In this document: positions 3,400 to 32,425 of the stretch, one piece after another
Position numbering within the stretch: the first letter of the stretch is position 1
How the letters are laid out: each line of letters opens with the position of its first letter
Assembly: GCA_043788365.1 (NCBI GenBank)
Contig: JAYVTZ010000013.1
Coordinates: 11,071-75,070, forward strand
Source of the DNA: Burkholderiaceae bacterium
Lineage (GTDB): Bacteria; Patescibacteriota; Saccharimonadia; Saccharimonadales; AQU-01
DNA length: 64,000 nt
Reading direction: 5' to 3'
Translations under genes and position numbers: made by a program
Notes under the pieces: generated by a model
Databases searched by the model: none
The model's input: only the letters and a program-made list of their open reading frames with translations
What the model was told of the DNA's origin: nothing

Positions 3400-4617
3400 A
3401 TGTCGCTATTGCTTTTGATTTTGGGTCTAGTCCTGTTCGTCGCTCTCGTAGTCGTCCACGAGTTTGGCCATTTTATTATGGCTAAAAGAAGTGGTGTAGA
3501 GGTTGAAGAGTTTGGAGTCGGCTTCCCACCACGCGCCAAGGTGCTAACTCGCCATAATGGAACTGTTTACACGCTAAATTGGTTACCGCTCGGTGGCTTT
3601 GTCCGCCTCAAAGGTGAGCACGACGCCGATAAGTCCGAGGGTAGTTATGGCAGCGCTAGGTTACGAGATAAGATTAAGATTATGTTGGCAGGTGTATTCA
3701 TGAACCTAGCCACAGCATTTGTGCTGCTAACGTTACTCGCTCTGATTGGTCTACCGAAGTTAATTGACAATCAATTTACTATAAAATCGGATACAAAAAT
3801 TGTTCGCAATGATGTTCTAATTGGCGATGTTGAACCGGGGTCACCAGCCACAAAGACGGTTTCAGAACAGCTCGTAACTAAGAAGGTTAACTCAACTTCC
3901 AACAAAACTTACACTCTCGTTAATCAAGTTGCTAATCCAATTCGACAACGCGATCAAATTGTAAGTATGTCAGTTGCCGCTGGTAGCGAGAATCAAGCGG
4001 TTACGCAGATAAAAACAAACAATGACTTATCGCACTTCACGAGTACGCACCCCGACCAGTCGATAACCATAATTATTAAAAGAGACAATAGGTTAATAAA
4101 GTTAGGCACCAAGATCCGTAGTCGTGCAGAGATTGAAGCCAGTATTGAAGCCAACAACCAGAAAGGTTACCTCGGTGTCATACCGACCGAATACACTTTA
4201 CAGCGCTCAACTTGGTCGGCGCCAATAGTTGCAGCTGGGCTAATCAAGCAGTTTACCGTTTTGACGTTCCAAGGGCTAGGTAAGGCGATTGGTGGCCTAG
4301 CTAGCGGCAACACTGCTCAGGCGAGTGCTCAAGTATCTGGTCCGGTCGGTATATTTGTTTTGCTTAACGACGGCAGTAGTCTCGGTTACCAATTTATTTT
4401 AATGATAATTGCGATAATTTCGCTAACACTGGCAATTATGAACGGCTTGCCGATACCGGCACTCGATGGTGGCCGTCTATTTGTGACTTTATTATTCAGG
4501 GTCTTCAAAAAACCTCTAACTCGTCGACGTGAAGATGTAATTCATGGCACCGGTTTCGCTCTGTTAATGGTGTTATTTGTACTGGTCACAATCGTTGATG
4601 TGAAGCGGAACTTCTAG
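3400..4617 (+). CDS. rseP: RIP (site-2) zinc metalloprotease, M50 family
   Basis: HEFGHF zinc motif in TM1, a central PDZ-like region and a C-terminal NGLPIPALDGG motif. Confidence 0.85.
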   Translation: MSLLLLILGLVLFVALVVVHEFGHFIMAKRSGVEVEEFGVGFPPRAKVLTRHNGTVYTLNWLPLGGFVRLKGEHDADKSEGSYGSARLRDKIKIMLAGVFMNLATAFVLLTLLALIGLPKLIDNQFTIKSDTKIVRNDVLIGDVEPGSPATKTVSEQLVTKKVNSTSNKTYTLVNQVANPIRQRDQIVSMSVAAGSENQAVTQIKTNNDLSHFTSTHPDQSITIIIKRDNRLIKLGTKIRSRAEIEASIEANNQKGYLGVIPTEYTLQRSTWSAPIVAAGLIKQFTVLTFQGLGKAIGGLASGNTAQASAQVSGPVGIFVLLNDGSSLGYQFILMIIAIISLTLAIMNGLPIPALDGGRLFVTLLFRVFKKPLTRRREDVIHGTGFALLMVLFVLVTIVDVKRNF

Positions 4618-13099: not shown

Positions 13100-14467
13100 T
13101 TGGAACACCTACTAGGCTGGGGTGTCACTATTGGCTTGTGTGCGGTACCATTGGTTCTATGGCTGAATCTACATCCTCTGTCGACCGTCCAGGGTTTCCC
13201 GGCCATTATGCTGGCAATTGGTCGTGTGACTGGGCTAATTGGCATGGTAATGTATGCCTTAAACTTAGTTTTTGCCACTAGACTTCGTTTCTTGGAAAAC
13301 TTTTTTGGTGGTCTCAACCGTGTCTATATCGCCCATCACATGCTTGGTGGCTTTGCACTGATATTTCTGTCACTACACCCACTATTTTTGGCACTACGCT
13401 ACATAAAAGTCTCTTTACTGCAGGCGGCACTGTTATTAATTCCTAACGGACTAACTCCTATCGGGGCACTATTTAATACCAACTCTCCATATCACAGCCT
13501 GGTCTTGGCGCAGTGGGCGACCTTCTTTGGTATCATTGCGCTTTGGGGCATGGTAGTGCTGCTGCTGGTAACTTTCTTTATCAAAATCCCATATCGTATT
13601 TGGCTATTCACTCATCAATTCCTTGGCTATGCCTTTTTTATTGCCGGCCTACACGTATTATTCATTTCATCTGATACTTCGAGAAGTAGTGCTTTGAAGT
13701 ATTACATCTTGGTGATGTCGGCTATTGGCATCATTGCCTTTATCTATCGTAGTATAGTTGGCAAGATTCTAATTCGTCATTACAAATATACCGTCGATCG
13801 GGTGATTGGTTCACCGACGGGTGTCACGCAGTTGCTTATGACCCACCAGAAACTAAAGATGAGCTATCGTTCAGGCCAGTTTGTATTTGTCAGGTTTCTG
13901 GGTGATGGTAGTGATGGTATTAGCCGCGAGTGGCACCCGTTCTCAATCTCGTCGTCACCAAAAGATACACAACTACGTCTTAGTGTTAAGGCGCTTGGTG
14001 ACTACACGACTATTTTGGGTAACTTGAAAGCAGGCACCACAGCCGAAGTTGAAGGTGCTTACGGTCGGTTTGGCTACACTAACTTCAATAATAAAAACCA
14101 GGTTTGGATAGCTGGTGGCATCGGCATTACGCCTTTTATTTCTATGGCTAGGGATTTAAGGCCCGATGACGGGTTGCGAATCGACCTGTACTACTCAGTC
14201 AAAACCGCCAGTGAGTTAATTAATTGGGAGGAATTGACGGGTATCGTTGCATTGAAGAACGGCTGGTTTAGATTAATTCCATATGTAGGCGACCAGCAGC
14301 CAGGGCACTTAAATGCTGATTTCATCGAAAAAAACAGTAGTGGCACCAAAGGTAAGGACTTTTATATCTGTGGTCCACCGGGAATGATGAAGTCACTACG
14401 CGAACAATTGCGCCAGAAGCATGTGCCAGGTACGAGTATTCATAGTGAAGAATTTGCAATGTCGTAA
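13100..14467 (+). CDS. NOX/ferric-reductase-family flavocytochrome (6-TM bis-heme domain plus FAD and NAD(P)H domains)
   Basis: Two His pairs 13 residues apart sit in TM segments (IAHHMLGGFALIFLSLH; THQFLGYAFFIAGLH). These are followed by HPFSISS (FAD), GGIGITPF (NAD(P)H) and CGPPGM. Confidence 0.8.
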   Translation: MEHLLGWGVTIGLCAVPLVLWLNLHPLSTVQGFPAIMLAIGRVTGLIGMVMYALNLVFATRLRFLENFFGGLNRVYIAHHMLGGFALIFLSLHPLFLALRYIKVSLLQAALLLIPNGLTPIGALFNTNSPYHSLVLAQWATFFGIIALWGMVVLLLVTFFIKIPYRIWLFTHQFLGYAFFIAGLHVLFISSDTSRSSALKYYILVMSAIGIIAFIYRSIVGKILIRHYKYTVDRVIGSPTGVTQLLMTHQKLKMSYRSGQFVFVRFLGDGSDGISREWHPFSISSSPKDTQLRLSVKALGDYTTILGNLKAGTTAEVEGAYGRFGYTNFNNKNQVWIAGGIGITPFISMARDLRPDDGLRIDLYYSVKTASELINWEELTGIVALKNGWFRLIPYVGDQQPGHLNADFIEKNSSGTKGKDFYICGPPGMMKSLREQLRQKHVPGTSIHSEEFAMS

Positions 14468-15918: not shown

Positions 15919-16431
15919 ATGATTACGCTAGGCATTGGCATCAAGATACGACAAGCACTGGGTTCAATAATGATTGTTTTTGGACTAAGCCTTATCCTTA
16001 TTGGCGCAAACCAAACTTTAATTAGACATCAGGACGAGCTAGCTTCTAAGCAACTCATAAATCAGAATCAAGTTTTAGGTGCAACATATATTGCCAAAGA
16101 TTACTCAGTCTATGTTAATAAAGTCGTCTCTCATCCAACAGATATTGCTAATAGTGGGCGGCGTTATTCGGCAGATGTAACACTAGTTAACACCTCAAAC
16201 CTAGCCCTAGATTATTCACCTGGTCTACAGCTGAGTTTGGTAGATGGAACTGGGCAAATCTATGCACCGACTGCAAAATATCTGGCTGATGGTCAGACGC
16301 TAGGTGGTAGCCTTGCCCCAGGTCAAAACACGACATCGACTATCGACTTTGATTTGCCTCAGGCGTCTCAACCAACCGAACTACAGTTTCAAGAAGATTT
16401 AACCAGCAAAGTAACCAAAATCAAATTATGA
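15919..16431 (+). CDS. membrane-anchored DUF4352-like protein
   Basis: N-terminal TM, then YSADVTLVNTSNLALDYSP...LVDGTGQIY...LAPGQNTTSTIDFDLP. Confidence 0.55.
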   Translation: MITLGIGIKIRQALGSIMIVFGLSLILIGANQTLIRHQDELASKQLINQNQVLGATYIAKDYSVYVNKVVSHPTDIANSGRRYSADVTLVNTSNLALDYSPGLQLSLVDGTGQIYAPTAKYLADGQTLGGSLAPGQNTTSTIDFDLPQASQPTELQFQEDLTSKVTKIKL

Positions 16432-18929
16432 GCCTTGACCCGATAGTTTTTACTCTACCTACGCCACCTCCACCACCGGTCAAGCTGCAGCGCCCCAAAT
16501 TTATTCCTGACTCAACCAAGCAAACCAAGATAATCGCTTCAATATCGGCAATTGTAATTGCGCTTAGTATGATTAGTTTTGCACTATTTACAGCCCTTAC
16601 TAACAACCAGACTTTTAAACAAAGCCATGGCATTAAAACCGCTGTTGAAGAGGCCACGCCTGGCGCATCGCTTAGTTCGGACAAGAGTTCAGCAGCATTG
16701 CCTGGTGGTGGAGTTGCAGTAGGTACTGGCGGAACTTCTGGAGGTGTAAATAGCCCAGTCGTGACTCTAACTGCTGAACCAGCCTCGGTACTACTCGGTG
16801 GCACAACTCAAATTAAATGGAAGGTTACAAATAATCCAACAAGCTGTCTGGCAACTGAAGACTGGGCAGGCAATAAAAATGTTGCCGGCGGTAGTGAAAC
16901 CACAGCACCACTGACCAAAGCACAGACCTATATTTTTACACTTACCTGTAAGACTGCAACAGACACAGGCTACGCAACGGTTACTGTTGGTGTCATCGAA
17001 CAATCAGTCAACACGAGCCCAACAACTAAGCCGACCGTAACACTGGCGGCGACACCGTCGGGTGTTTATGTTGGTCAAAGCTCAATCCTAAGCTGGAGCG
17101 TATCCAATAATCCAACCTCATGCACCGCAAGTGGTGACTGGTCAGGTGCCAAGCCAACCGGCGGTTCGGCTGACACCGGTGTACTGAACACCGCTAGACA
17201 GTATAACTACACACTGACATGTTCTAATGGCGCCGGCAGTAACAGTTCGACTACACATGTCTCGGCCATTAATATCCCTCCGAATACGCCGATAGTTGGG
17301 CTATCTAGCAATCCTTCGGGCCCGGTAGCACCCGGTGCAACTGCGACTCTAACCTGGACTTTCCTGGGTGGTGCACCAACCTCGTGTACGGCCAGTGGCG
17401 ACTGGACGGGCGCCAAGAGTACGGCTGGTGGCTCGGCAGTTGTAGGCCCGATGAATACAATTCGTACCTATAGCTATACTTTGACATGCTCTAATGTCAG
17501 CGGTTCATCCTTTGACACGGCCTCAATTCTGGTGATTCCAAATCCACCAGCTATATCTCTAACGGTTAGCCCCAGTGCGATATTTGTCGGTAGCTCGGCG
17601 ACTATAAGCTGGTCGGCAACAAATAGCCCGACAACCTGCACAGCTAGCGGTGATTGGGCGGGCGCCAAGGCTGCCAGTGGTACGGCTTCGACCGGCTCGT
17701 TAGCCGTCGCCAGAACCTATTTGTATAGCTTGTCTTGTGCGAATAGCGGCGGTACTACCACTGTCAGTAATATTCCGCTGACAGTAACTTTGCCGCCGGC
17801 TCCGGTGGTGACTATAAACGCGAACCCTATTTCGACAACTGTCGGTAGTTCGTCGACGTTATCATGGTCGGCAACAAATAGCCCGACAACCTGCACAGCT
17901 AGCGGTGATTGGGCGGGCGCCAAGGCTGCCAGTGGTACGGCTTCGACCGGTGCGCTAACCCTTGCCAAGACATATACTTTTACTCTGACGTGTTCAAATG
18001 CTGGTGGCTCAGGAGTTGGGTCGACCAGTGTAACTGTTTCCGTTGGTGGTGGAGCGGTCATAGCACCAGTCGTGACTATCACCGTTAGCCCAGCCAGTAT
18101 CGGTACGGGTAGTTCAGCGACGATTAGTTGGTCGGCAACAAATAGTCCAACGACATGTACGGCTAGTGGCTCGTGGACTGGCGCGAAAGGGACGAGTGGT
18201 ACGACCAGTACTGGAGTAATGAACGCCGCCGGAACCTTCACATACACTCTAACTTGTTCAAACACCGCAGGTAGTGACGTTAAGTCGGCAGTTTTAACTG
18301 TTATTGCAATTCCAGTCGTCACGATTTCGGTCGCGCCGACCTCAATAATTGCCGGCGCAAGTGCCAATATCTCCTGGAGCGTTACCAATACGCCGACAAC
18401 TTGTACGGCTGGCGGTAGCTGGACGGGCTCCAAGGCCGCCGCCGGTGGTCCGGTAACTACTGGTGTTATGTTAACTGCTGGCTCGTTTATTTACTCGCTA
18501 AGCTGTACCAACTCGGGCGGCACCGGTTCTGGCTCGGCGACCCTAACCGTCACCAGTGCCTCACCAGTTTTCTGTACTGGACTGGTGCCATGTTATGGCA
18601 TTAGCGAGATGGCGACTCGTGCCACTGTCGGTAATTGTTGGGGTTGGAACGATCCAGCCAACGGCACCGTGCCATGGGTGATTAATGTTACCAACTTTAG
18701 ACCAAGCCATCTCGGCGGCACGTCGCTTGGCTCACTTGAAACCGTCGGTTCGACCTGTAATAAGAATATGTTTGCTATTTTAGCTGGTACGGCGGCGATA
18801 CCGGGCTATAAGGATGCGAGCGGCGCCACGACCCATGCGCACGTTGCTGCCACCAAGAATAATACCGCCAGCTCAGGCCTTAAATCAGCCAGCTTCCATG
18901 TTGGCTATTATGATCCGACTAAACCATAG
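16428..18929 (+). CDS. large surface protein: seven tandem two-Cys Ig-like repeats plus a cytochrome-b5-like C-terminal domain
   Basis: A proline-rich N-terminus and TM anchor are followed by 7 repeats of about 86 aa (consensus ...SWSxTNxPTxCTASGDWxGAK...G...TYxYTLTCSNxxGS...). The last 120 aa read FCTGLVPCYG...GNCWGWN...VINVTNFRPSHLGG. Confidence 0.8.
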   Translation: MSLDPIVFTLPTPPPPPVKLQRPKFIPDSTKQTKIIASISAIVIALSMISFALFTALTNNQTFKQSHGIKTAVEEATPGASLSSDKSSAALPGGGVAVGTGGTSGGVNSPVVTLTAEPASVLLGGTTQIKWKVTNNPTSCLATEDWAGNKNVAGGSETTAPLTKAQTYIFTLTCKTATDTGYATVTVGVIEQSVNTSPTTKPTVTLAATPSGVYVGQSSILSWSVSNNPTSCTASGDWSGAKPTGGSADTGVLNTARQYNYTLTCSNGAGSNSSTTHVSAINIPPNTPIVGLSSNPSGPVAPGATATLTWTFLGGAPTSCTASGDWTGAKSTAGGSAVVGPMNTIRTYSYTLTCSNVSGSSFDTASILVIPNPPAISLTVSPSAIFVGSSATISWSATNSPTTCTASGDWAGAKAASGTASTGSLAVARTYLYSLSCANSGGTTTVSNIPLTVTLPPAPVVTINANPISTTVGSSSTLSWSATNSPTTCTASGDWAGAKAASGTASTGALTLAKTYTFTLTCSNAGGSGVGSTSVTVSVGGGAVIAPVVTITVSPASIGTGSSATISWSATNSPTTCTASGSWTGAKGTSGTTSTGVMNAAGTFTYTLTCSNTAGSDVKSAVLTVIAIPVVTISVAPTSIIAGASANISWSVTNTPTTCTAGGSWTGSKAAAGGPVTTGVMLTAGSFIYSLSCTNSGGTGSGSATLTVTSASPVFCTGLVPCYGISEMATRATVGNCWGWNDPANGTVPWVINVTNFRPSHLGGTSLGSLETVGSTCNKNMFAILAGTAAIPGYKDASGATTHAHVAATKNNTASSGLKSASFHVGYYDPTKP
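16758..18566 (+). repeat. intragenic tandem array of seven ~255-260-bp coding repeats
   Basis: Repeat boundaries were read from the protein. It includes an 86-bp perfect direct repeat at 17610-17695 and 17865-17950. Confidence 0.85.
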
Positions 18930-19797: not shown

Positions 19798-20295
19798 ATG
19801 GATAAATCACAAAAAGCCGTTTTTGCTGCTGGTTGTTTCTGGGGAGTGCAGTTTTATTTTGACCAAGTCCCGGGCGTCCTCAAAACGACTGTCGGTTATA
19901 CCGGTGGTCGTACCAAAAATCCGACCTACGAAGAGGTTTGTACGCACACAACAGGGCACGCTGAGGCGACATTAATCGAATTTGACCCCGTAATTATTAG
20001 TTACAAACAGTTACTGATGCATTTTTTCAGGATTCACGACCCAACCCAACTCAACCGCCAAGGCCCTGATATTGGCGATAGTTACCGCTCGGCGATATTT
20101 TATCTAGACGATAGCCAACAGCTAGAAGCCGAAGGATATATAAGTGAACTTGGCATGAATATCGAATATAAGGAGCAAATAGTCACGGAAGTTACGAAGC
20201 TAGATGAATTCTATCCGGCCGAAGACTATCACCAAAAATTCTCTGAGCGCACGGGCCGTGGCATGTGCCACGTGGCTTACGCACCAGTCGGTTGA
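19798..20295 (+). CDS. msrA: peptide-methionine (S)-S-oxide reductase
   Basis: AVFAAGCFWGVQFYF catalytic motif and GYTGG. I moved the start to the ATG at 19798, 6 nt after TGcTATTCT (19783-19791). Confidence 0.9.
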   Translation: MDKSQKAVFAAGCFWGVQFYFDQVPGVLKTTVGYTGGRTKNPTYEEVCTHTTGHAEATLIEFDPVIISYKQLLMHFFRIHDPTQLNRQGPDIGDSYRSAIFYLDDSQQLEAEGYISELGMNIEYKEQIVTEVTKLDEFYPAEDYHQKFSERTGRGMCHVAYAPVG

Positions 20296-20337
20296 TAGTA
20301 GTAGGCAATTGAACAGGGCAAATGGTATATTATTGGC

Positions 20338-21234
20338 ATGGCAAAAAAGTCTAAAAAAGCACAGAAGATAAAAGTTACTAAACTTTCAGTTGTCGATGAG
20401 CAGCTCAGAAAAACGCCAACACCAAAAAAAGCAAAAGTCGAAGAAGCGCCTCAACCGACAGAAGAACTAGGCAACAAACAGTTTAGACATTGGAACTTTT
20501 TTGTGTCACTAGTTTTAATTGCCCAGGCCATAACTCTGACTATCTATGCACAATCTCAGAGCTTGGCGATAACTAGTAATTTTTTGAACACTGATAGTTT
20601 AGCCTCACAGAGTTCCAAGCGGGTTGTCTTAGCACCAGCTGTGCGCCGAGTCTTTGAGCTCGATCTTAAAGTAGTCGTAATTATATTTTTGCTGTCCTCG
20701 GCCTTCTTTCATCTACTAATTGCCACTTATTCTCGTAAAAAAACCGACGATGATATAAAACACGGCGTAAACCGACTACGATGGATAGATTATGGCCTGA
20801 CGTCTGGGCTGATGTTTGTCGCCATCAGTCTAATTAACGGTGTATATGACCTCGCAACCATGGTACTGATTTTTGCCTTAGTACTCTCGCTGCATTTATA
20901 CGGTTATCAGCTCGAAATGCAAAAACTATCCGGCGTAAAGGTTACCTACCATAATCTAGTCGGTCTACTTGGCTCTGGTGGTGCGATTTGGCTAGCTATT
21001 GCAATCTACCTAAAGAACTCAATTATTTATGGTCACGTTGCCGGCAATTACGTTTACTATATCGATGGCTCGATTTTTATTGTTACTTTGGCGCTGGCGA
21101 CCAACGCCTATTTGTCATACAAAAGTCATGGTCCGTGGCAGCGCTATTTTTTCACCGAGAAAGTCTACATCTTACTTAGTCTAGTCGCTAAATCGGCGCT
21201 GGCTTGGCAAATATATTACGGTCTGCTCAGGTAG
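20338..21234 (+). CDS. heliorhodopsin (7-TM retinal protein)
   Basis: Seven hydrophobic segments. The C-terminal helix YILLSLVAKSALAWQIYYG matches, from memory, the TM7 Schiff-base-lysine motif SLVAKSALAWQIF of heliorhodopsin 48C12. NRLRWIDYGLTS aligns with its TM3 RWVEYSLSS. Confidence 0.85.
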   Translation: MAKKSKKAQKIKVTKLSVVDEQLRKTPTPKKAKVEEAPQPTEELGNKQFRHWNFFVSLVLIAQAITLTIYAQSQSLAITSNFLNTDSLASQSSKRVVLAPAVRRVFELDLKVVVIIFLLSSAFFHLLIATYSRKKTDDDIKHGVNRLRWIDYGLTSGLMFVAISLINGVYDLATMVLIFALVLSLHLYGYQLEMQKLSGVKVTYHNLVGLLGSGGAIWLAIAIYLKNSIIYGHVAGNYVYYIDGSIFIVTLALATNAYLSYKSHGPWQRYFFTEKVYILLSLVAKSALAWQIYYGLLR

Positions 21235-21256: not shown

Positions 21257-22075
21257 GTGGCAAACAATTATTTTCGGGAACGCTCAAAGCCTTATAGTCC
21301 TGGTCAAAAGGAAGTCTTTAAGTTGTCGCGTAGTAAAATTGAGCTTTTTACTCAGTGTCCACGTTGTTTTTGGCTCGATGCGCGGCTCAAAATTACTCGT
21401 CCTAACACGCCGCCGTTCAATATCAACAAAACCATCGACGAATTATTCAAAAAAGAGTTTGACCATTACCGTGCCCTTGGACAACCGCACCCAATGATGA
21501 CCGATAATCAGATCAAGGCAGTGCCGATGCAACATAAAGACCTCGATAAGTGGCGTTACAACTTTACCGGAGTTACAGCTCTGCACGAACCAACTAACTT
21601 GCACATTTTTGGCGCAATCGATGACGTCTGGATTGATGACGACGGTCAGGCAATTGTGGTTGACTACAAGGCTACAAGTAAGAATAAAGAAATTGATATT
21701 GATGCTGACTGGCAAATGAGCTATAAGCGCCAGATGGAAGTTTATCAATGGCTACTACGGCGTAATGACCTACTAGTTAGCGACACTGGTTATTTTGTTT
21801 ATACTAACGCCCGAATCGATTTAGATGGCTTTAACGACAAGCTCGAATTTGTCACCAAAGTTATTCCGTACACTGGCGACGACAGTTGGGTCGAGCCAAC
21901 AATTGTTAAAATGAAACAGTGTATAGATGGTGATATGCCAGCCGTCGGCATGGCGGCTATGGGTGGAGCTTGTGACTACTGTGCTTACGCCGAAGCCCGC
22001 ACTCGTTTAACTCTCGAACACCCAGCCACTTACAAAGCCTTGCACGCCCGCGTCAGCAAAAAATCAACTAAATAA
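21257..22075 (+). CDS. PD-(D/E)XK nuclease family protein (Cas4/RecB-like, Cys-rich)
   Basis: N-terminal CPRCFW, a core IDDVW...AIVVDYKAT (D...D/ExK), and a C-terminal CDYCAY consistent with an Fe-S cluster. GTG start 9 nt after TGtTACAAT. Confidence 0.65.
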   Translation: MANNYFRERSKPYSPGQKEVFKLSRSKIELFTQCPRCFWLDARLKITRPNTPPFNINKTIDELFKKEFDHYRALGQPHPMMTDNQIKAVPMQHKDLDKWRYNFTGVTALHEPTNLHIFGAIDDVWIDDDGQAIVVDYKATSKNKEIDIDADWQMSYKRQMEVYQWLLRRNDLLVSDTGYFVYTNARIDLDGFNDKLEFVTKVIPYTGDDSWVEPTIVKMKQCIDGDMPAVGMAAMGGACDYCAYAEARTRLTLEHPATYKALHARVSKKSTK

Positions 22076-22126: not shown

Positions 22127-23482
22127 ATGATTGATATTCAGTATATTCGCGATAACGCCGATTTAGTTGCCGAAAAATCAAAACAAAAAGGCTACCCAGT
22201 CGACGTTCAAACCTTGCTTCAGAAGGACAATCAACGGCGTTCGCTCTTGGCTAACGTAGAGACATTGCGCCAACAACGCAATGAACTAAGTGCTGCTAAT
22301 AAGGGCGAAAAGCCAAGTCCGGCAGCGATTCAGGCCGGCAAAACGATTAAAGAGAAAATTTCAATGCTCGAGGTAGAACTCGAAACCACCGAAGCCGACT
22401 ACCAGAAACTTATCAAACAAGTCCCAAATATGCCGAGTGCTGACGTGCCGGTTGGTGCCAGTGAAGACGAAAATCAAGAAGTCTACAAGCGGGGTGAACC
22501 ACCTAAATTTGATTTTGAGCCCAAAAATCACGCAGATCTTGCAGAAACTTTGGGTTGGCTAGATAAAGAACGGGCGACTAAAGTTTCAGGTTCTCGCTTT
22601 GCCTACATTAAGGGCGACATGGTCAGGCTACAAATGGCCCTGATATTTTGGATAATGGACGTCGTCACTAACGAAAAAATTTTGCGCGAAATCGCCGACT
22701 ACGCCGGGCTGACTAAAGTATCGAGCAAACCATTTACTCCAATTTTGCCGCCACTGATGCTCAAAACCGAGATGTATGATGCGATGGATCGCTTAGAACC
22801 GCGCGACGACCGCTACAAAATTGAGGGCGAGGAGTTGTGGCTACAGGGTAGTGCCGAACACGTGCTCGGTAGTATGCACGCTGACGAAATTTTTGATGAG
22901 TCAGAGCTGCCGGTCAGATATCTCGGTTACGCTACCAGTTTTCGTAAAGAGGCTGGCACCTATGGTAAGGACATGGAAGGCATTATTCGTATGCACCAGT
23001 TCGACAAACTCGAGATGGAAAGTTTCACATCACCAGAAATGGGCGCCGACGAGCACTTATTCATTATAGCAATTCAGGAGTACATCTTAAGTCAGCTACA
23101 AATCCCGTATCGCAAACTACTGAAGTGCACTTTTGATATCGGTAAGCCTAATGCTCGCGGCGTTGACCTCGAAGCCTGGCTGCCATCTCAGAATAAGTAC
23201 CGCGAGACCCACACCGCCGACTATATGACCGATTATCAGGCGCGCCGTTTGCAGACCCGTTACCGGCATTTTATACCAGCTGTGGAAACAACTGGTGGTG
23301 TTGACCCAGGTCTCGCGAGTAAAGCGGGAAGTAAAATTGACCTAATCCACACCAATGATGCAACTGCCTTGGCACTCGGCCGGGGTATGGTCGCAATCCT
23401 CGAGAATTATCAAACAAAAGAAGGCCGGGTACGTGTACCAGAAGTCTTAAAGCCATATTTAGGAGGCAAAGAAGTTCTATGA
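22127..23482 (+). CDS. serS: seryl-tRNA synthetase
   Basis: N-terminal coiled-coil arm and class II motifs (FRKEAGTYGKD, RMHQFDKLEM, LENYQ). Confidence 0.9.
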   Translation: MIDIQYIRDNADLVAEKSKQKGYPVDVQTLLQKDNQRRSLLANVETLRQQRNELSAANKGEKPSPAAIQAGKTIKEKISMLEVELETTEADYQKLIKQVPNMPSADVPVGASEDENQEVYKRGEPPKFDFEPKNHADLAETLGWLDKERATKVSGSRFAYIKGDMVRLQMALIFWIMDVVTNEKILREIADYAGLTKVSSKPFTPILPPLMLKTEMYDAMDRLEPRDDRYKIEGEELWLQGSAEHVLGSMHADEIFDESELPVRYLGYATSFRKEAGTYGKDMEGIIRMHQFDKLEMESFTSPEMGADEHLFIIAIQEYILSQLQIPYRKLLKCTFDIGKPNARGVDLEAWLPSQNKYRETHTADYMTDYQARRLQTRYRHFIPAVETTGGVDPGLASKAGSKIDLIHTNDATALALGRGMVAILENYQTKEGRVRVPEVLKPYLGGKEVL

Positions 23483-29320: not shown

Positions 29321-30397
29321 TTAGTCTGTAAAGACCTTATCACGATGGTATTGTAAATAATTTTTTCTTTCTTGGTTTAGTAAAAATTCATCTATTCTAT
29401 ATACGCTTAGATGATCTTTAAGTCTTTTCGATAAGTTTCTTGTTTGAGAAATTACTATGGTGCCATCATCAGAGAAGCTAATATATCCTTGGTCAAAAAG
29501 CTGATCTATGTTTCTACTTAATAACAGACCATTATTCTCATCAAAGGCTTCTTCCTCAGTTGAATGAGAATAGGGTTTTATGTGGCTAGCTATTAAGACA
29601 GGGTAGTCTAACTTTTCAACCATACAAACAACAGCATCGTAATATTTGTTTGACTCTGATATTAGCTGATTTTTATAAAGCCTCTGTAAGTAACTGTCTC
29701 TTAGTCCACTTACGGATTTGCCATCTGTTAGTATGGACTTTGATCTTGAGTCGCTACTGAAATATACGGCATCTTGCCTTACAGCAAGATCATCCAGTTG
29801 ATCTAAGAGGTTCCACAAATATCTTATTTGATTGTACTTTCTTTCAACAAATCCAATTGATCGTATATATGTGACTCCGGAATCTATCATTTCTCTTGTG
29901 GCAAAATCTTGTTTTGCTAACGAAACATTAATAGTCATTAGCGCGACAGCTTCTTCTTTTGTCAGTCTGCCGTCAGCAGCCGTTAGAGTGTTAACAAAAA
30001 AATTTATTTCGTTAACGTCTGAATCATTAGTAAATGATCGTCCAAAACTAGAGTTCGAATATACTATCTTAGAGAATATAGTACCTTTTTCCGATGGATC
30101 TGACGTAGATAGAAAATCCTTAGTATGTTTATGGTATCCTGCTAAGGCAGAATTCACGAAGCCTAGCTTGATAAATTGATTGATAGCTTTACGCGTTGAA
30201 ATAAGTTGAATAGGGTAATTCTTAACTAGTTCATGTTGTAGTTTATCATATGCATTACCAGCATTTGAAGATATTTCTTGTCTATTATCGTCAATGAAAT
30301 TAACAATTATTCCTAGACTACCGTTAAACCCATCTCCTGTTATGTCTGAGTAAGCTAGAGTAAGTTTCCAGTATGATTCGTACGTTTGGTCTGTCAT
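29321..30397 (-). CDS. restriction endonuclease candidate with a C-terminal HNH (HNH_2-like) nuclease domain
   Basis: The C-terminus reads VLIASHIKPYSHS...ENNGLLLSRNIDQLFDQGYISF. It is the last gene of the operon, 2 nt after the adenine methyltransferase. Confidence 0.6.
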   Translation of the reverse strand: MTDQTYESYWKLTLAYSDITGDGFNGSLGIIVNFIDDNRQEISSNAGNAYDKLQHELVKNYPIQLISTRKAINQFIKLGFVNSALAGYHKHTKDFLSTSDPSEKGTIFSKIVYSNSSFGRSFTNDSDVNEINFFVNTLTAADGRLTKEEAVALMTINVSLAKQDFATREMIDSGVTYIRSIGFVERKYNQIRYLWNLLDQLDDLAVRQDAVYFSSDSRSKSILTDGKSVSGLRDSYLQRLYKNQLISESNKYYDAVVCMVEKLDYPVLIASHIKPYSHSTEEEAFDENNGLLLSRNIDQLFDQGYISFSDDGTIVISQTRNLSKRLKDHLSVYRIDEFLLNQERKNYLQYHRDKVFTD

Positions 30398-30399
30398 AA

Positions 30400-31431
30400 C
30401 TAAGATCTCTCGGCGATAAACAAATATTCAGAATTCTTGTGCTTGTTTAATTTCCCTGTAATTTTATATGTGTGTTTCACTTCTACTACTTTAACACTTT
30501 TAGCGTGTTTACTTATAATGTCTATCAAAACATCCTTAGATGGAAAAGAAGACGTATTGTAACTAAGCATCCAATATTTGAAATTCCCAAGACTTGAAAA
30601 AAGTTTTTCGAATAGCTCGATGGAAGCGTCTTTATTGATGAAGTTGTTATTAAAGGGAGGAATAACCTCCCCTTGAATATAGTTATCCAAAAAGCTATAG
30701 AACTCATAATAGTTATTCATAGTGCCGGTATAGGGTGGATCAATATACACAAGGTCTGCAGACAATTCTTTTATTGCATCGAATGCATCCATATTTACTG
30801 AAACGTTTTCTTGACCATTATCAAAAACAGCCTTATTATACTGCTGAATATTAGATTTGAAGTGGTGTTCGAACGATTCATTATGATATGCCCTGCGTCT
30901 TTTATACTTAGCGTAGCTATACTCCTCGTCTCTTAATTGCTCTACCTTTTCCCATTTAATATTGAACCTAGAATAGGGCATTTTTCTAATCAACGACCTT
31001 CGCATTAATATTAGGGCAAGCGACTTTTTATACTCAGAACTCAAGTGTCGAATGTTTTCTCTGTATAGGTCGAGCTGTTCGCATTCATTGGGATAGAATA
31101 ATTTCCCAGCGTAATTACTATACACAAAGCCCCTAAATGGCTTACCTTTAAATATTAAATCTACGTCACTATCGGTAAGAGTTTCTCTATCGTTTTCAAT
31201 CAGCGCCCTACCTATCTCGTAGTTAATCCTCATGATATCGTTAGATATAACTGACATACCGCGCCTCTTATAGGCGTATGCAACTGAGGCTCCACCCGAG
31301 AATAAGTCAAGTACGGTATTAACCCCTGAAGGGGTGTTGTCGCATATCCAGTCAGTAATTTTTTCTTTATTTCCGATGAAGTTTACTGTCGGGTACTTGA
31401 TTCTACTTGCAGGATGATTTTTACTTATCAT
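30400..31431 (-). CDS. DNA N6-adenine methyltransferase (Dam/D12-class-like)
   Basis: DLFSGGASV (motif I) and VYIDPPYTG (motif IV, DPPY). Confidence 0.8.
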   Translation of the reverse strand: MISKNHPASRIKYPTVNFIGNKEKITDWICDNTPSGVNTVLDLFSGGASVAYAYKRRGMSVISNDIMRINYEIGRALIENDRETLTDSDVDLIFKGKPFRGFVYSNYAGKLFYPNECEQLDLYRENIRHLSSEYKKSLALILMRRSLIRKMPYSRFNIKWEKVEQLRDEEYSYAKYKRRRAYHNESFEHHFKSNIQQYNKAVFDNGQENVSVNMDAFDAIKELSADLVYIDPPYTGTMNNYYEFYSFLDNYIQGEVIPPFNNNFINKDASIELFEKLFSSLGNFKYWMLSYNTSSFPSKDVLIDIISKHAKSVKVVEVKHTYKITGKLNKHKNSEYLFIAERS

Positions 31432-32425
31432 GAACTGAACCGGTGCTCATCATATGTCTAATATTTTTCGCTAAATGATAACCAAGGAGCGGTGGGACTG
31501 AGTTACCTACTTGTTGCTGCTGGGAGATTACCGAGCCTTCAAAAATAAAATTATCTGGATACGTTTGTAAGCGAGCAAGTTCTCTGACTGTGAGCGCTCG
31601 ATTATCTCGGTAGTGAAAAACTTTACGCATGTCCCCGGTAATGCAAACTGAGGGCTCTGCACTCGAGTACCGTATGTACTTTCTTATATCGCCAGAAGTT
31701 GGTCTAATTGCTTTAGGAATATCATTGCGAGTACCTCCATCTGTGACAAAACTCATTTTATGTAGCATTTGGTCCGTATGATTCATGGCAACATGATTAG
31801 GAATGCATGAATTTTCTCCAGATTTCAATCTGGGCAAGTCGTCGATTGCATCTTTTACAGAGACAGGTTTTGAACCTAATGGTTTAGGGAATATTATATT
31901 GACATCAAGTTTTGTTCCAATAAATATAGTTCTTCTGCGTTGTTGAGGCACACCATAATCAGCGGTATTTATGACTTTAACTTTTACGTTATAACCGATT
32001 TTTTTAAATGTTTCTAATATCTCGGCGCGTGTTTTCCCCTGGTTATGCGTATATAGTCTAGCTACATTTTCCATTATGAAGAAGTCTGGACTTACGGCAT
32101 CAACTACTCTAGCAAACTCCTTAAACAAATAGTTTCTGGGGTCGTCCACAAACTTTCGACCAATACTCCCAGCCATGCTGAACCCCTGGCATGGTGGACC
32201 GCCAACAACCACATCAATCTTTTGTTTCTTAATCAATGTGCGAATCTCTTCAGTGGTTAATTCAGTTATATTCTTCTTGATGAGTGTGTGAGATGGAAAA
32301 TTACGTGAGTATGTCTTATTGAACGTCTGATCAAAATCCACCGAAAAAACATTAGCAAAGGCTGCTTGCTCGAAACCGAGAGTTAACCCTCCCGAACCAC
32401 TAAATAGATCTATAAATGTTGGCAT
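31421..32425 (-). CDS. DNA cytosine-5 methyltransferase
   Basis: DLFSGSGG, GGPPCQGFS, ENV, QRRRT and GNSVPP are the canonical m5C motifs I, IV, VI, VIII and X. Confidence 0.9.
   Translation of the reverse strand: MPTFIDLFSGSGGLTLGFEQAAFANVFSVDFDQTFNKTYSRNFPSHTLIKKNITELTTEEIRTLIKKQKIDVVVGGPPCQGFSMAGSIGRKFVDDPRNYLFKEFARVVDAVSPDFFIMENVARLYTHNQGKTRAEILETFKKIGYNVKVKVINTADYGVPQQRRRTIFIGTKLDVNIIFPKPLGSKPVSVKDAIDDLPRLKSGENSCIPNHVAMNHTDQMLHKMSFVTDGGTRNDIPKAIRPTSGDIRKYIRYSSAEPSVCITGDMRKVFHYRDNRALTVRELARLQTYPDNFIFEGSVISQQQQVGNSVPPLLGYHLAKNIRHMMSTGSVHDK

Follow-up and report, generated by a model that had tools for sequence, protein, structure and literature searches.

Heliorhodopsins (HeRs) are proteins of unsettled function, and nearly all of the biophysics on them rests on Glu/His-type proteins such as 48C12 and TaHeR (PDB 6SU3, 6IS6), in which the roles of individual pocket residues have been described (PMC7049168, PMC9726877, PMC7807009). 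When the Glu counterion is shortened by engineering (E107D in 48C12, E108D in TaHeR), retinal is still bound and lambda-max is unchanged, the shorter side chain of E108D being compensated by an adjacent serine (bioRxiv 10.1101/2020.06.24.168591; PDB 7CLJ). HeRs have already been reported from Saccharimonadia, with 80 occurrences (PMC9166423). Here we describe a HeR gene (positions 20338..21234, + strand, 298 aa) in a 64,000-nucleotide stretch of contig JAYVTZ010000013.1 (assembly GCA_043788365.1, positions 11,071 to 75,070), deposited as a Burkholderiaceae bacterium and placed by GTDB in the Saccharimonadales (AQU-01). The whole stretch is referred to as the window, and the protein as the window HeR. 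It belongs to a small, clade-specific and fast-evolving group, the Asp/Leu (D/L) subfamily, of which four sequence clusters are known so far. Judging from the sequences, we put the probability at roughly 0.55 that it is a retinal-binding photosensor of this subfamily with a rewired proton-acceptor network.

The window HeR is an intact, full-length heliorhodopsin of a Saccharibacterium, a membrane protein of the light-sensor type. It matches Pfam PF18761 (Heliorhodopsin) at 6.6e-52 (176.7 bits against a cutoff of 26.7), with profile positions 2-242 of 242 spanning residues 50-297, and the NCBIfam HeR equivalog NF038020, where it scores 167.9 bits and the cutoff is 100. A phmmer search against PDB sequences returned TaHeR (1.3e-32) and 48C12 (3.4e-24), to which it is 28-32% identical; in these alignments R148-W-I-D151-Y pairs with RWFEY in TaHeR and with RWVEY in 48C12, and SLVAK285SALAWQ falls on the Schiff-base motif. 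An AlphaFold2 model built from 40 homologues (pLDDT 84.2, pTM 0.77) contains seven transmembrane (TM) helices and the beta-hairpin in the first extracellular (AB) loop that is typical of HeRs. When this predicted structure was searched with Foldseek, TaHeR and 48C12 ranked at the top (target-normalised TM-scores 0.85-0.93, E-values to 1.5e-16, the best being 0.93 to TaHeR 6IS6), while type-1 rhodopsins scored far lower, at about 0.55. Lys and Arg number 18 on the predicted cytoplasmic side versus 5 outside, which would fit an N-in topology. The full-length profile match, the hairpin fold, the SxxxK motif and the charge bias are all held in common with 48C12 and TaHeR. The initial annotation had recognized a seven-helix HeR with Lys285 (codon 21190-21192) as the Schiff-base Lys and Asp151 (codon 20788-20790) at the Glu107 site, and each of these assignments was borne out; Asp151 aligns with E108 of TaHeR and E107 of 48C12, and no alignment placed a Glu there.

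Compared with 48C12 and TaHeR, the window HeR differs in its Asp counterion, in substitutions at 48C12 positions 23, 92, 111, 113, 141, 142, 206, 213 and 216, and in an extra basic tail of 40 aa. All codons lie on the + strand, and positions were taken from the alignment. Asp151 (20788..20790) takes the place of the single Glu counterion (Glu107/Glu108), its carboxylate being one methylene shorter; a Glu counterion is no part of the Pfam or NCBIfam definition of a HeR. One turn off the counterion, Thr155 (20800..20802) stands at Ser111 (TaHeR Ser112). TM3 accordingly reads R..D...T with Asp151 and Thr155, and the spacing is the same as that of Arg82, Asp85 and Thr89 in bacteriorhodopsin. Leu60 (20515..20517) occupies the position of His23 in the Schiff-base cavity and proton-acceptor network, and Thr136 (20743..20745) that of Tyr92, the cytoplasmic gate of the hydrogen-bond network (PMC9726877). 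By the beta-ionone ring, Leu185-His186 (20890..20895) replace Met141-Asn/Ile142, and in the wall of the retinal pocket Thr250 (21085..21087) replaces Phe206 (Trp182 in bacteriorhodopsin), the pocket roles of these sites being known from PMC7049168; both changes are fixed in the subfamily. Asp243 (21064..21066, register from the phmmer alignment) is a carboxylate that does not vary within the subfamily. It lies in the outer half of TM6, at a site occupied by Tyr in canonical orthologues. Other replacements affect the helix C-D hydrogen-bond cluster by the retinal (Ser113 to Gly157), the conserved proline of helix E (Pro172 to Ile217), a known colour-tuning site (Gln/Met213 to Ala257) and the water-mediated network around Glu149 (Gln216 to Ser260). 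The SLVAK motif (21178..21192), with Ser281 (Ser237) and the Schiff-base Lys285 (Lys241), is present in 4/4 subfamily members.

Pocket columns were judged in an alignment of the best 120 word-index matches, the query included. Across the other 119 sequences, 72 columns show conservation of 95% or higher; the window HeR deviates at 24 of them, the runner-up at 5, and the median is 0. The Glu-to-Asp change thus does not stand alone, and the pocket is rebuilt well beyond the counterion. Many of the exchanges are of the conservative kind (E>D, S>T, M>L, F>Y, L>I). Equivalents of Asn16, Gln26, Phe72, Ser76, His80, Asn101, Arg104, Trp105, Tyr108, Met115, Glu149, Trp173, Tyr226, Glu230, Ser237, Lys241, Trp246 and Gln247 (48C12 numbers) are retained; Asn16, Ser76, His80, Arg104, Trp105, Tyr108, Glu149, Trp173 and Glu230 are among the likenesses to both 48C12 and TaHeR. 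Within the Schiff-base cavity set, Ser121, His125, Asn145, Asn53 and Glu274 are kept and three members are altered (His23 to Leu60, Tyr92 to Thr136, Ser111 to Thr155), so that the full canonical set is not present.

The subfamily emerged when 1.84 billion representatives of 50%-identity clusters were searched exhaustively with phmmer; the clearly best match to the window HeR was P0241 (254 bits, 43% identity, full length). A two-sequence profile of the window HeR and P0241 added P0391 (53% identity) and P0392 (46%), after which the profile score dropped from 386 to 268 bits. P0241, P0391 and P0392 share the locus of the window HeR, in the genomes that are nearest to the window by their flanking genes (nuclease 84-89%, SecA 86-88%, M16 peptidase 81-83%), and pairwise identity among the four proteins is 43-62%. 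Substitutions were counted as fixed when they were the same in 4/4 members at a position at least 90% conserved in 26 canonical orthologues. Ten substitutions qualified: His23 to Leu, Glu107 to Asp, Met141 to Leu, Asn142 to His, Phe206 to Thr, Phe209 to Leu, Gly165 to Leu and changes at 48C12 positions 73, 79 and 148. Gly165 to Leu is not taken as a solid pocket change, the subfamily having a Gly one position earlier (G209-L210), which may reflect a register shift. Position 23 is His in 26/26 canonical Saccharibacteria orthologues and Leu in 4/4 subfamily members. Positions 172, 213 and 216 are altered in all four with varying residues (Pro172 to Ile/Val, Met213 to Ala/Thr, Gln216 to Ser/Asn), and the terminal Pro is lost in all four. 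Asp243 and Lys226 are new in the subfamily and the same in all its members. Retained in 4/4 members are 41 conserved residues, including Ser281 and Lys285 as well as Ser121, His125, Arg148, Trp149, Tyr152, Glu193, Trp218 and Glu274. Three changes are private to the window protein: Tyr92 to Thr, Ser111 to Thr and Ala to Ser156.

A scan of GTDB species genomes gave 80 HeR loci. The gene order (msrA)-HeR-variable genes-PD-(D/E)XK nuclease-serS-hpf-secA is common to 26 Saccharibacteria loci and the window, the variable genes 3' of HeR filling 0 to 4.5 kb in the 26, and by its position the window HeR is orthologous to the Saccharibacteria HeR. With the canonical Saccharibacteria proteins (PMC9166423; P0023, P0398, P0411) it has in common the locus, a tail of the MAKKS/MATTTKK kind and the host clade, in which no retinal synthesis is expected. 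However, the canonical proteins are 50-87% identical mutually and carry His23, Glu107, Ser111, Met141, Asn142 and Phe206, while the window HeR is only 33-42% identical to them. Median identity of HeR is 37.8% for the window versus the others (maximum 41.8) and 60.9% for the others among themselves (minimum 50.4). The corresponding medians are 67.9% and 67.1% for the nuclease, 55.7% and 56.0% for SerRS, and 78.3% and 75.6% for SecA. Flanking genes of the window are 55-89% identical to those of Saccharibacteria metagenome-assembled genomes (MAGs), and these identities, with the synteny, are the basis for assigning the window to Saccharibacteria here. By these identities the divergence of the flanking genes is normal, and the acceleration is confined to HeR.

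A neighbor-joining tree of 223 HeRs gave the window HeR a terminal branch of 0.87, compared with a median of 0.116 and 0.47 for the longest other branch. Its placement by midpoint rooting was dropped, and the tree was used for branch lengths only, because the long query branch captured the root. A ratio of nonsynonymous to synonymous divergence (dN/dS) between the window and the sister locus L116 was unusable, synonymous sites being saturated (pS 0.72-0.94), and only dN values were therefore compared: 0.57 for HeR and 0.09-0.39 for seven neighbors. Given this saturation, the derived states that the subfamily shares are of long standing. In simulations of neutral drift to 40-50% protein identity, started from the HeR genes of four relatives, 7-8 in-frame stops accumulated and the probability of an intact open reading frame (ORF) was at most 0.002. 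Retention of the orthologue consensus in the window HeR falls from 63% at invariant columns to 52, 35, 24 and 17% at progressively less conserved ones. Such patterns indicate that the window HeR is intact and maintained by selection, and that the subfamily is under purifying selection.

An Asp counterion is rare overall and, by the alignments at hand, recurrent in divergent HeR branches. The alignment to HeR sets that had been called for confirmed the Asp: among the best 120 word-index matches the column holds Glu in 119 and Asp only in the window HeR, and Asp occurs in 0/80 GTDB loci. A different picture comes from the 150 nearest 50%-identity cluster representatives (P0241-P0390), in which counts stand for lineages and not genes because clustering at this level over-represents fast evolvers. 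There, 63 proteins bear the Schiff-base Lys, with Glu in 46 and Asp in 10. His23 is found in none of the 10 Asp representatives (8 Tyr, 2 Leu) and in 15 of the 46 Glu representatives. Among 222 HeRs from three sources, the combination at positions 23, 107 and 111 was His-Glu-Ser in 192, Phe-Glu-Ser in 4, Leu-Asp-Ser/Ala in 22 (an archaeal clade) and Leu-Asp-Thr in 1, the window HeR. In the sequences compared, an Asp counterion goes together with the loss of His23.

The archaeal clade was recovered when Joint Genome Institute (JGI) metagenomes were scanned with a DNA pattern for RWxDY ... AK[ST]xLAWQ, which hit 34 contigs encoding 28 distinct proteins of a single clade. A protein search started from one of these returned about 54 clusters that are at least 81% identical, some of them named 'heliorhodopsin HeR [Euryarchaeota / Halobacteriota archaeon]'. 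This Asp/Leu clade of archaeal MAGs (loci L082-L115; proteins P0121-P0169) is coherent and otherwise canonical. Every member has Asp, and every member whose sequence includes the N-terminus has Leu at position 23. Its nearest relatives are no more than 66% identical to it, and without exception they have His23 and Glu107. Like the window HeR it combines Glu107 to Asp and His23 to Leu with a retained Lys, yet it is of separate origin (31-33% identity to the window HeR), lacks a basic tail and evolves slowly (at least 81% identity within the clade). It is also canonical at Ser111, Met141, Asn142, Phe206, Met213 and Gln216, all of which are altered in the window HeR.

The initial annotation had proposed that the Glu-to-Asp change may alter the photocycle. 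The Asp is indeed there, but Asp alone predicts little, because the engineered E107D and E108D proteins bind retinal with unchanged lambda-max. These mutants resemble the window HeR in pairing an Asp counterion with the Lys, and they form a pigment with visible absorption. However, they retain His23 and Ser111/112, where the window HeR has Leu and Thr in addition to a remodelled pocket.

The Schiff-base Lys is absent from 87 of the 150 representatives, most of which have Gly, Gln, Ser, Ala or Thr at the counterion site, and the canonical set of His23, His80, Glu107, Ser111, Ser237 and Lys241 is complete in only 11 of the 150. Several Lys-less proteins (P0242, P0244, P0247, P0275) come from the same Saccharibacteria locus, with HAD, RlmD-like or RsmE genes following; the contigs of P0247 and P0275 continue into nuclease-serS-hpf-secA, while the short contig of Lys-less P0243 shows the HAD gene only. 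Lys-less proteins with the HeR fold (loci L119-L122, L126, L127) mostly have basic tails of the Saccharibacteria type, and the acidic counterion is usually absent from them. A literature search for Lys-less heliorhodopsin homologues found nothing specific; analogues exist among type-1 opsins (PMC10308929, bioRxiv 10.1101/2025.04.29.651185).

The N-terminal tail of the window HeR (aa 1-41, 20338..20460, + strand) is Lys-rich, disordered in the model (pLDDT about 50) and predicted to be cytoplasmic, with 12 Lys and Arg in 41 aa; the first 46 residues hold 11 Lys, 1 Arg and 6 Asp/Glu. Such a long basic tail had been noted before, and is present as described, but it is not peculiar to this protein. 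At least 40 residues precede the Asn16 column in 70 of 151 representatives, with a mean Lys+Arg fraction of 0.26 and a mean Asp+Glu fraction of 0.04. Lys/Thr/Ser-rich tails are common in the nearest Saccharibacteria HeRs (MATTTKKSTTKSKSK..., to ~85 aa), and homologous tails in relatives are of the MAKK(S/T) and MATTTKK types, the window tail being a short, relatively acidic version. Lys241 is present in 29 of 70 long-tailed versus 35 of 81 short-tailed representatives. From this distribution the basic tail is a clade trait, independent of retinal chemistry; it may serve to bind partners, nucleic acids or lipids, or to set the topology.

If the window HeR is a photosensor, all-trans-retinal from outside would be bound via Lys285, with Asp151 as the only counterion and Thr155 and Ser121 as its hydrogen-bonding partners, and the beta-ionone region would be altered by Leu185, His186, Thr250 and Ala257. 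Because His23 is lost throughout the subfamily and Tyr92 in the window HeR also, the proton-acceptor and relay network would be reduced to the branch of His125, the only histidine left, and with this reduced network the photocycle and output should differ from those of 48C12 and TaHeR. The protein would be a slow-cycling photosensor, with output to cytoplasmic partners through its cytoplasmic face and the disordered polybasic tail. MsrA would be the only recurrent neighbor plausible as a partner; the nuclease would be none.

Several observations weigh against a retinal-binding photosensor. Pocket-wall residues that are invariant elsewhere are altered (Phe206, Met141, Phe209 and position 213), and type-1 FArhodopsins with a Lys and a remodelled pocket bind no retinal (bioRxiv 10.1101/2025.04.29.651185). 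Other Saccharibacteria orthologues at the same locus lack the Lys, and the TM7 ALAWQ motif is conserved in Lys-less forms too, so that its conservation is uninformative on retinal. The D/L subfamily is known from four members only, and saturation of dS leaves no proper dN/dS for the window HeR versus L116. The main rival explanation, which we hold to be possible but not likely, is a retinal-independent scaffold, in which the HeR fold and the basic tail serve a purpose that needs no light, for instance organising the membrane or binding a partner, and Lys285 and Asp151 are leftovers on the way to a Lys-less state. The scaffold is evidently useful without retinal, since orthologues at the same locus have lost the Lys (4 of the 5 Lys-less proteins checked are at that locus, and 87/150 nearest representatives lack it). 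Tails are equally common with and without the Lys, and the pocket is remodelled at Asn142 as well as at the wall positions named above. There is also precedent in Rh-noK and the FArhodopsins (PMC10308929; bioRxiv 10.1101/2025.04.29.651185), which, with their fast evolution, remodelled pocket and loss of Lys in some, are an analogue of the Saccharibacteria HeR radiation. However, these belong to the type-1 family, and the window HeR retains both the Lys and an acidic counterion. Moreover, Lys285, Ser281, Asp151, Trp149, Tyr152 and Trp218 are kept in 4/4 members across saturated synonymous divergence. An acidic counterion is found in 56 of 63 Lys-bearing versus 26 of 87 Lys-less representatives (Fisher p = 1.5e-13, uncorrected for phylogeny), and this tracking of the Lys is the main argument for a protonated Schiff base in Lys-bearing Asp forms. 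We therefore prefer the retinal-binding photosensor.

The neighbors of the window HeR bear on what such a photosensor could act upon. Upstream lies msrA, encoding peptide-methionine (S)-S-oxide reductase (19798..20295, + strand; PF01625 5e-62, TIGR00401 194.6 bits), whose likely start is the ATG at 19798, as called on a Logan contig. With its stop at 20295 the gap to HeR is 42 nt; the initial annotation was right about the adjacency and had given 43. Downstream, 22 nt past HeR, a PD-(D/E)XK nuclease begins with GTG at 21257 (21257..22075, + strand; PF12705 PDDEXK_1 2.4e-14) and contains five Cys, at 34, 37, 222, 239 and 242. The gap, the Cys residues and the PD-(D/E)XK assignment stand as first described, but the protein is not a bona fide Cas4: it scores below both cutoffs (Pfam PF01930 19.7 < 22.7; TIGR00372 29.4 < 65), and no cas genes were seen near it.

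The extended -10 box TGgTATATT (20324..20331, + strand), noted earlier as lying 6 nt from the ATG in the leaderless manner, was found again in the sequence and by a consensus scan (TAGGCA-18-TATATT with TG), as a pattern match only, the scan giving 3 sites versus 6.7 expected in shuffles. HeR, the nuclease and serS each have a -10 box of their own 6-8 nt from the start codon, that of the nuclease being TACAAT, 7 nt before the GTG, and each of the three genes is probably transcribed on its own, as a leaderless unit. A TGnTATAAT-like box stands 5-9 nt (mostly 6-8) before the start of about 12-18 of the 58 window genes. Strong boxes of this kind 6-8 nt before an ATG, without a Shine-Dalgarno sequence, occur at many gene starts, for example those at 3400, 22127, 33734, 42052 (- strand), 43304, 48306, 51095 and 55299, which suggests widespread leaderless mRNAs in this organism.

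In relatives, RlmD-like U5 methyltransferase, RsmE, HAD hydrolase and unknown genes intervene between HeR and the nuclease, and the two are directly adjacent only in the window, L116, L125, L017, L021 and L032. On these comparisons the nuclease adjacency is collinearity, an inherited gene order and not a conserved partnership. The msrA gene lies within 2.5 kb upstream of HeR at 17/26 syntenic Saccharibacteria loci and 4/4 subfamily loci, with the orientation of HeR in the window and L116, whereas in L123 and L125 the two genes are divergent; a sortase gene on the other strand often stands between msrA and HeR in relatives. The expectation that both adjacencies are conserved therefore held in part, msrA being frequent and the nuclease separated by other genes. 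Two MsrA types, about 40% identical, are found at the HeR-upstream position in either orientation (window 19798-20295 versus L123, L125 and L119). In the sister genome L116 (7398-7876; also L117 and L118), msrA is split into overlapping ORFs of 78 and 92 aa with HeR intact; as the identical split recurs in three independent assemblies, it is likely a frameshift pseudogene. Outside Saccharibacteria, msrA abuts HeR at a Thermoleophilia locus (L061) and lies 1.7 kb off on one archaeal contig. An apparent MsrA-HeR fusion in L021 (a 440-aa ORF extension) was rejected as an artefact, two stop codons separating the genes.

That HeR controls MsrA and the adjacent Fe-S nuclease as a dedicated light-regulated damage-response module is in our judgment unlikely. 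HeRs are known to regulate neighboring enzymes (PMC9529153, PMC11109279), and a general oxidative-stress role has already been proposed for them (PMC8612252, PMC9166423). The frequency of msrA upstream of HeR, its presence beside the Lys-less P0242 and the Thermoleophilia HeR, and the occurrence of two msrA types in both orientations at this position would also fit a module. HeR-partner operons such as HeR-glutamine synthetase and HeR-ABC transporter are marked by same-strand adjacency or co-transcription across lineages, but msrA occurs near HeR in both orientations. However, unrelated housekeeping genes part the nuclease from HeR in most relatives, HeR, the nuclease and serS each carry a promoter-like box, and msrA of the sister genome is frameshifted beside an intact HeR. 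The msrA gene is missing beside HeR in 9/26 syntenic loci and in almost all loci outside Saccharibacteria, and the Saccharibacteria cases may trace to a single ancestral arrangement. Our literature search for a link between heliorhodopsin and methionine sulfoxide reductase or msrA found none. A MsrA-HeR link is possible but weak. For the initial suggestion of a light-sensing partner in damage response, this leaves a possible, unproven oxidative link and no support for the DNA-damage part. That the window HeR stands beside msrA and the nuclease is mostly a matter of inherited gene order. The locus also carries a caution, in that synteny in small collinear genomes alone yields operon-like adjacencies.

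Another, rather doubtful possibility is that HeR at this one Saccharibacteria locus may be radiating functionally, lineage by lineage, so that canonical Glu/His photosensors, remodelled Asp/Leu forms and many Lys-less forms are orthologues, and that the output of the D/L forms may be photochemically novel. If this were true, the D/L output (with invariant Asp243, Lys226, His186 and Thr250) would be one not yet known in bacterial heliorhodopsins, and proton transport, strongly shifted absorption or a different host-derived chromophore would be the candidates. One such output, light-driven or light-gated proton transport as in the viral V2HeR3 group, we regard as very unlikely. The likeness to V2HeR3 lies in the HeR fold and in the extracellular half of TM6, where both have polar or carboxylate residues. 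V2HeR3 depends on E191, a carboxylate of TM6, and on polar residues in the same half (PMC9448325). All subfamily members carry Asp243, Lys226, His186 and Thr250, none of which is found in canonical orthologues, where the extracellular half is normally hydrophobic. Asp243 stands three residues, or one helical turn, before the E191 equivalent, Ile246. However, that equivalent is itself an Ile, the aromatic gate (Trp195 in V2HeR3) is a Thr, the E205 equivalent Gln216 is a Ser, and E191 is reported to be necessary and not sufficient. Finally, a decaying pseudogene or an assembly artefact inflating the divergence, which the very long terminal branch and altered conserved positions might suggest, is largely refuted by the intact 298-codon ORF (P at most 0.002 under neutral drift), the graded retention of the consensus, three intact relatives with the same derived residues, an identical 6.7-kb contig in a Logan assembly and the confidently predicted AlphaFold2 fold.

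Other features of the window were also recorded. A NOX-like membrane oxidoreductase (13208-14467, + strand) with a Ferric_reduct TM domain, FAD_binding_8 and a NAD-binding domain lies 5 kb upstream of msrA and is absent at that position in L116 and L123. An 833-aa secreted or surface protein (16428-18929, + strand) consists of about eight tandem repeats of about 85 aa (motif ...W(S/T)xxN(S/T)PT(S/T)CTASG(D/S)W(A/T)G(A/S)K...), whose sole Pfam match is a weak one to DUF5979 and of which a 54%-identical fragment exists in L125. The window SerRS (22127-23482, + strand) is only 54% identical to those of the closest relatives L116 and L123, two genomes with SecA and nuclease at 84-89% identity to the window's, and 60-63% identical to those of the more distant Saccharibacteria L009, L010, L013 and L017, which suggests two SerRS types or a replacement. 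A restriction-modification-like row (29321-32425, - strand) comprises an HNH_2 endonuclease, a D12-class N6-adenine methyltransferase and a C5-cytosine methyltransferase.

No retinal or carotenoid genes were found among 20 scanned ORFs of the 64-kb window and five upstream ORFs, and Saccharibacteria hosts of HeR must scavenge retinal. HeRs with an Asp counterion are always without His23, in two independent lineages, and they are a natural experiment for studying how the counterion network and the proton-acceptor group work. The canonical, remodelled and Lys-less versions at one Saccharibacteria locus form a graded series in which retinal-dependent and scaffold-dependent roles of heliorhodopsins may be told apart.

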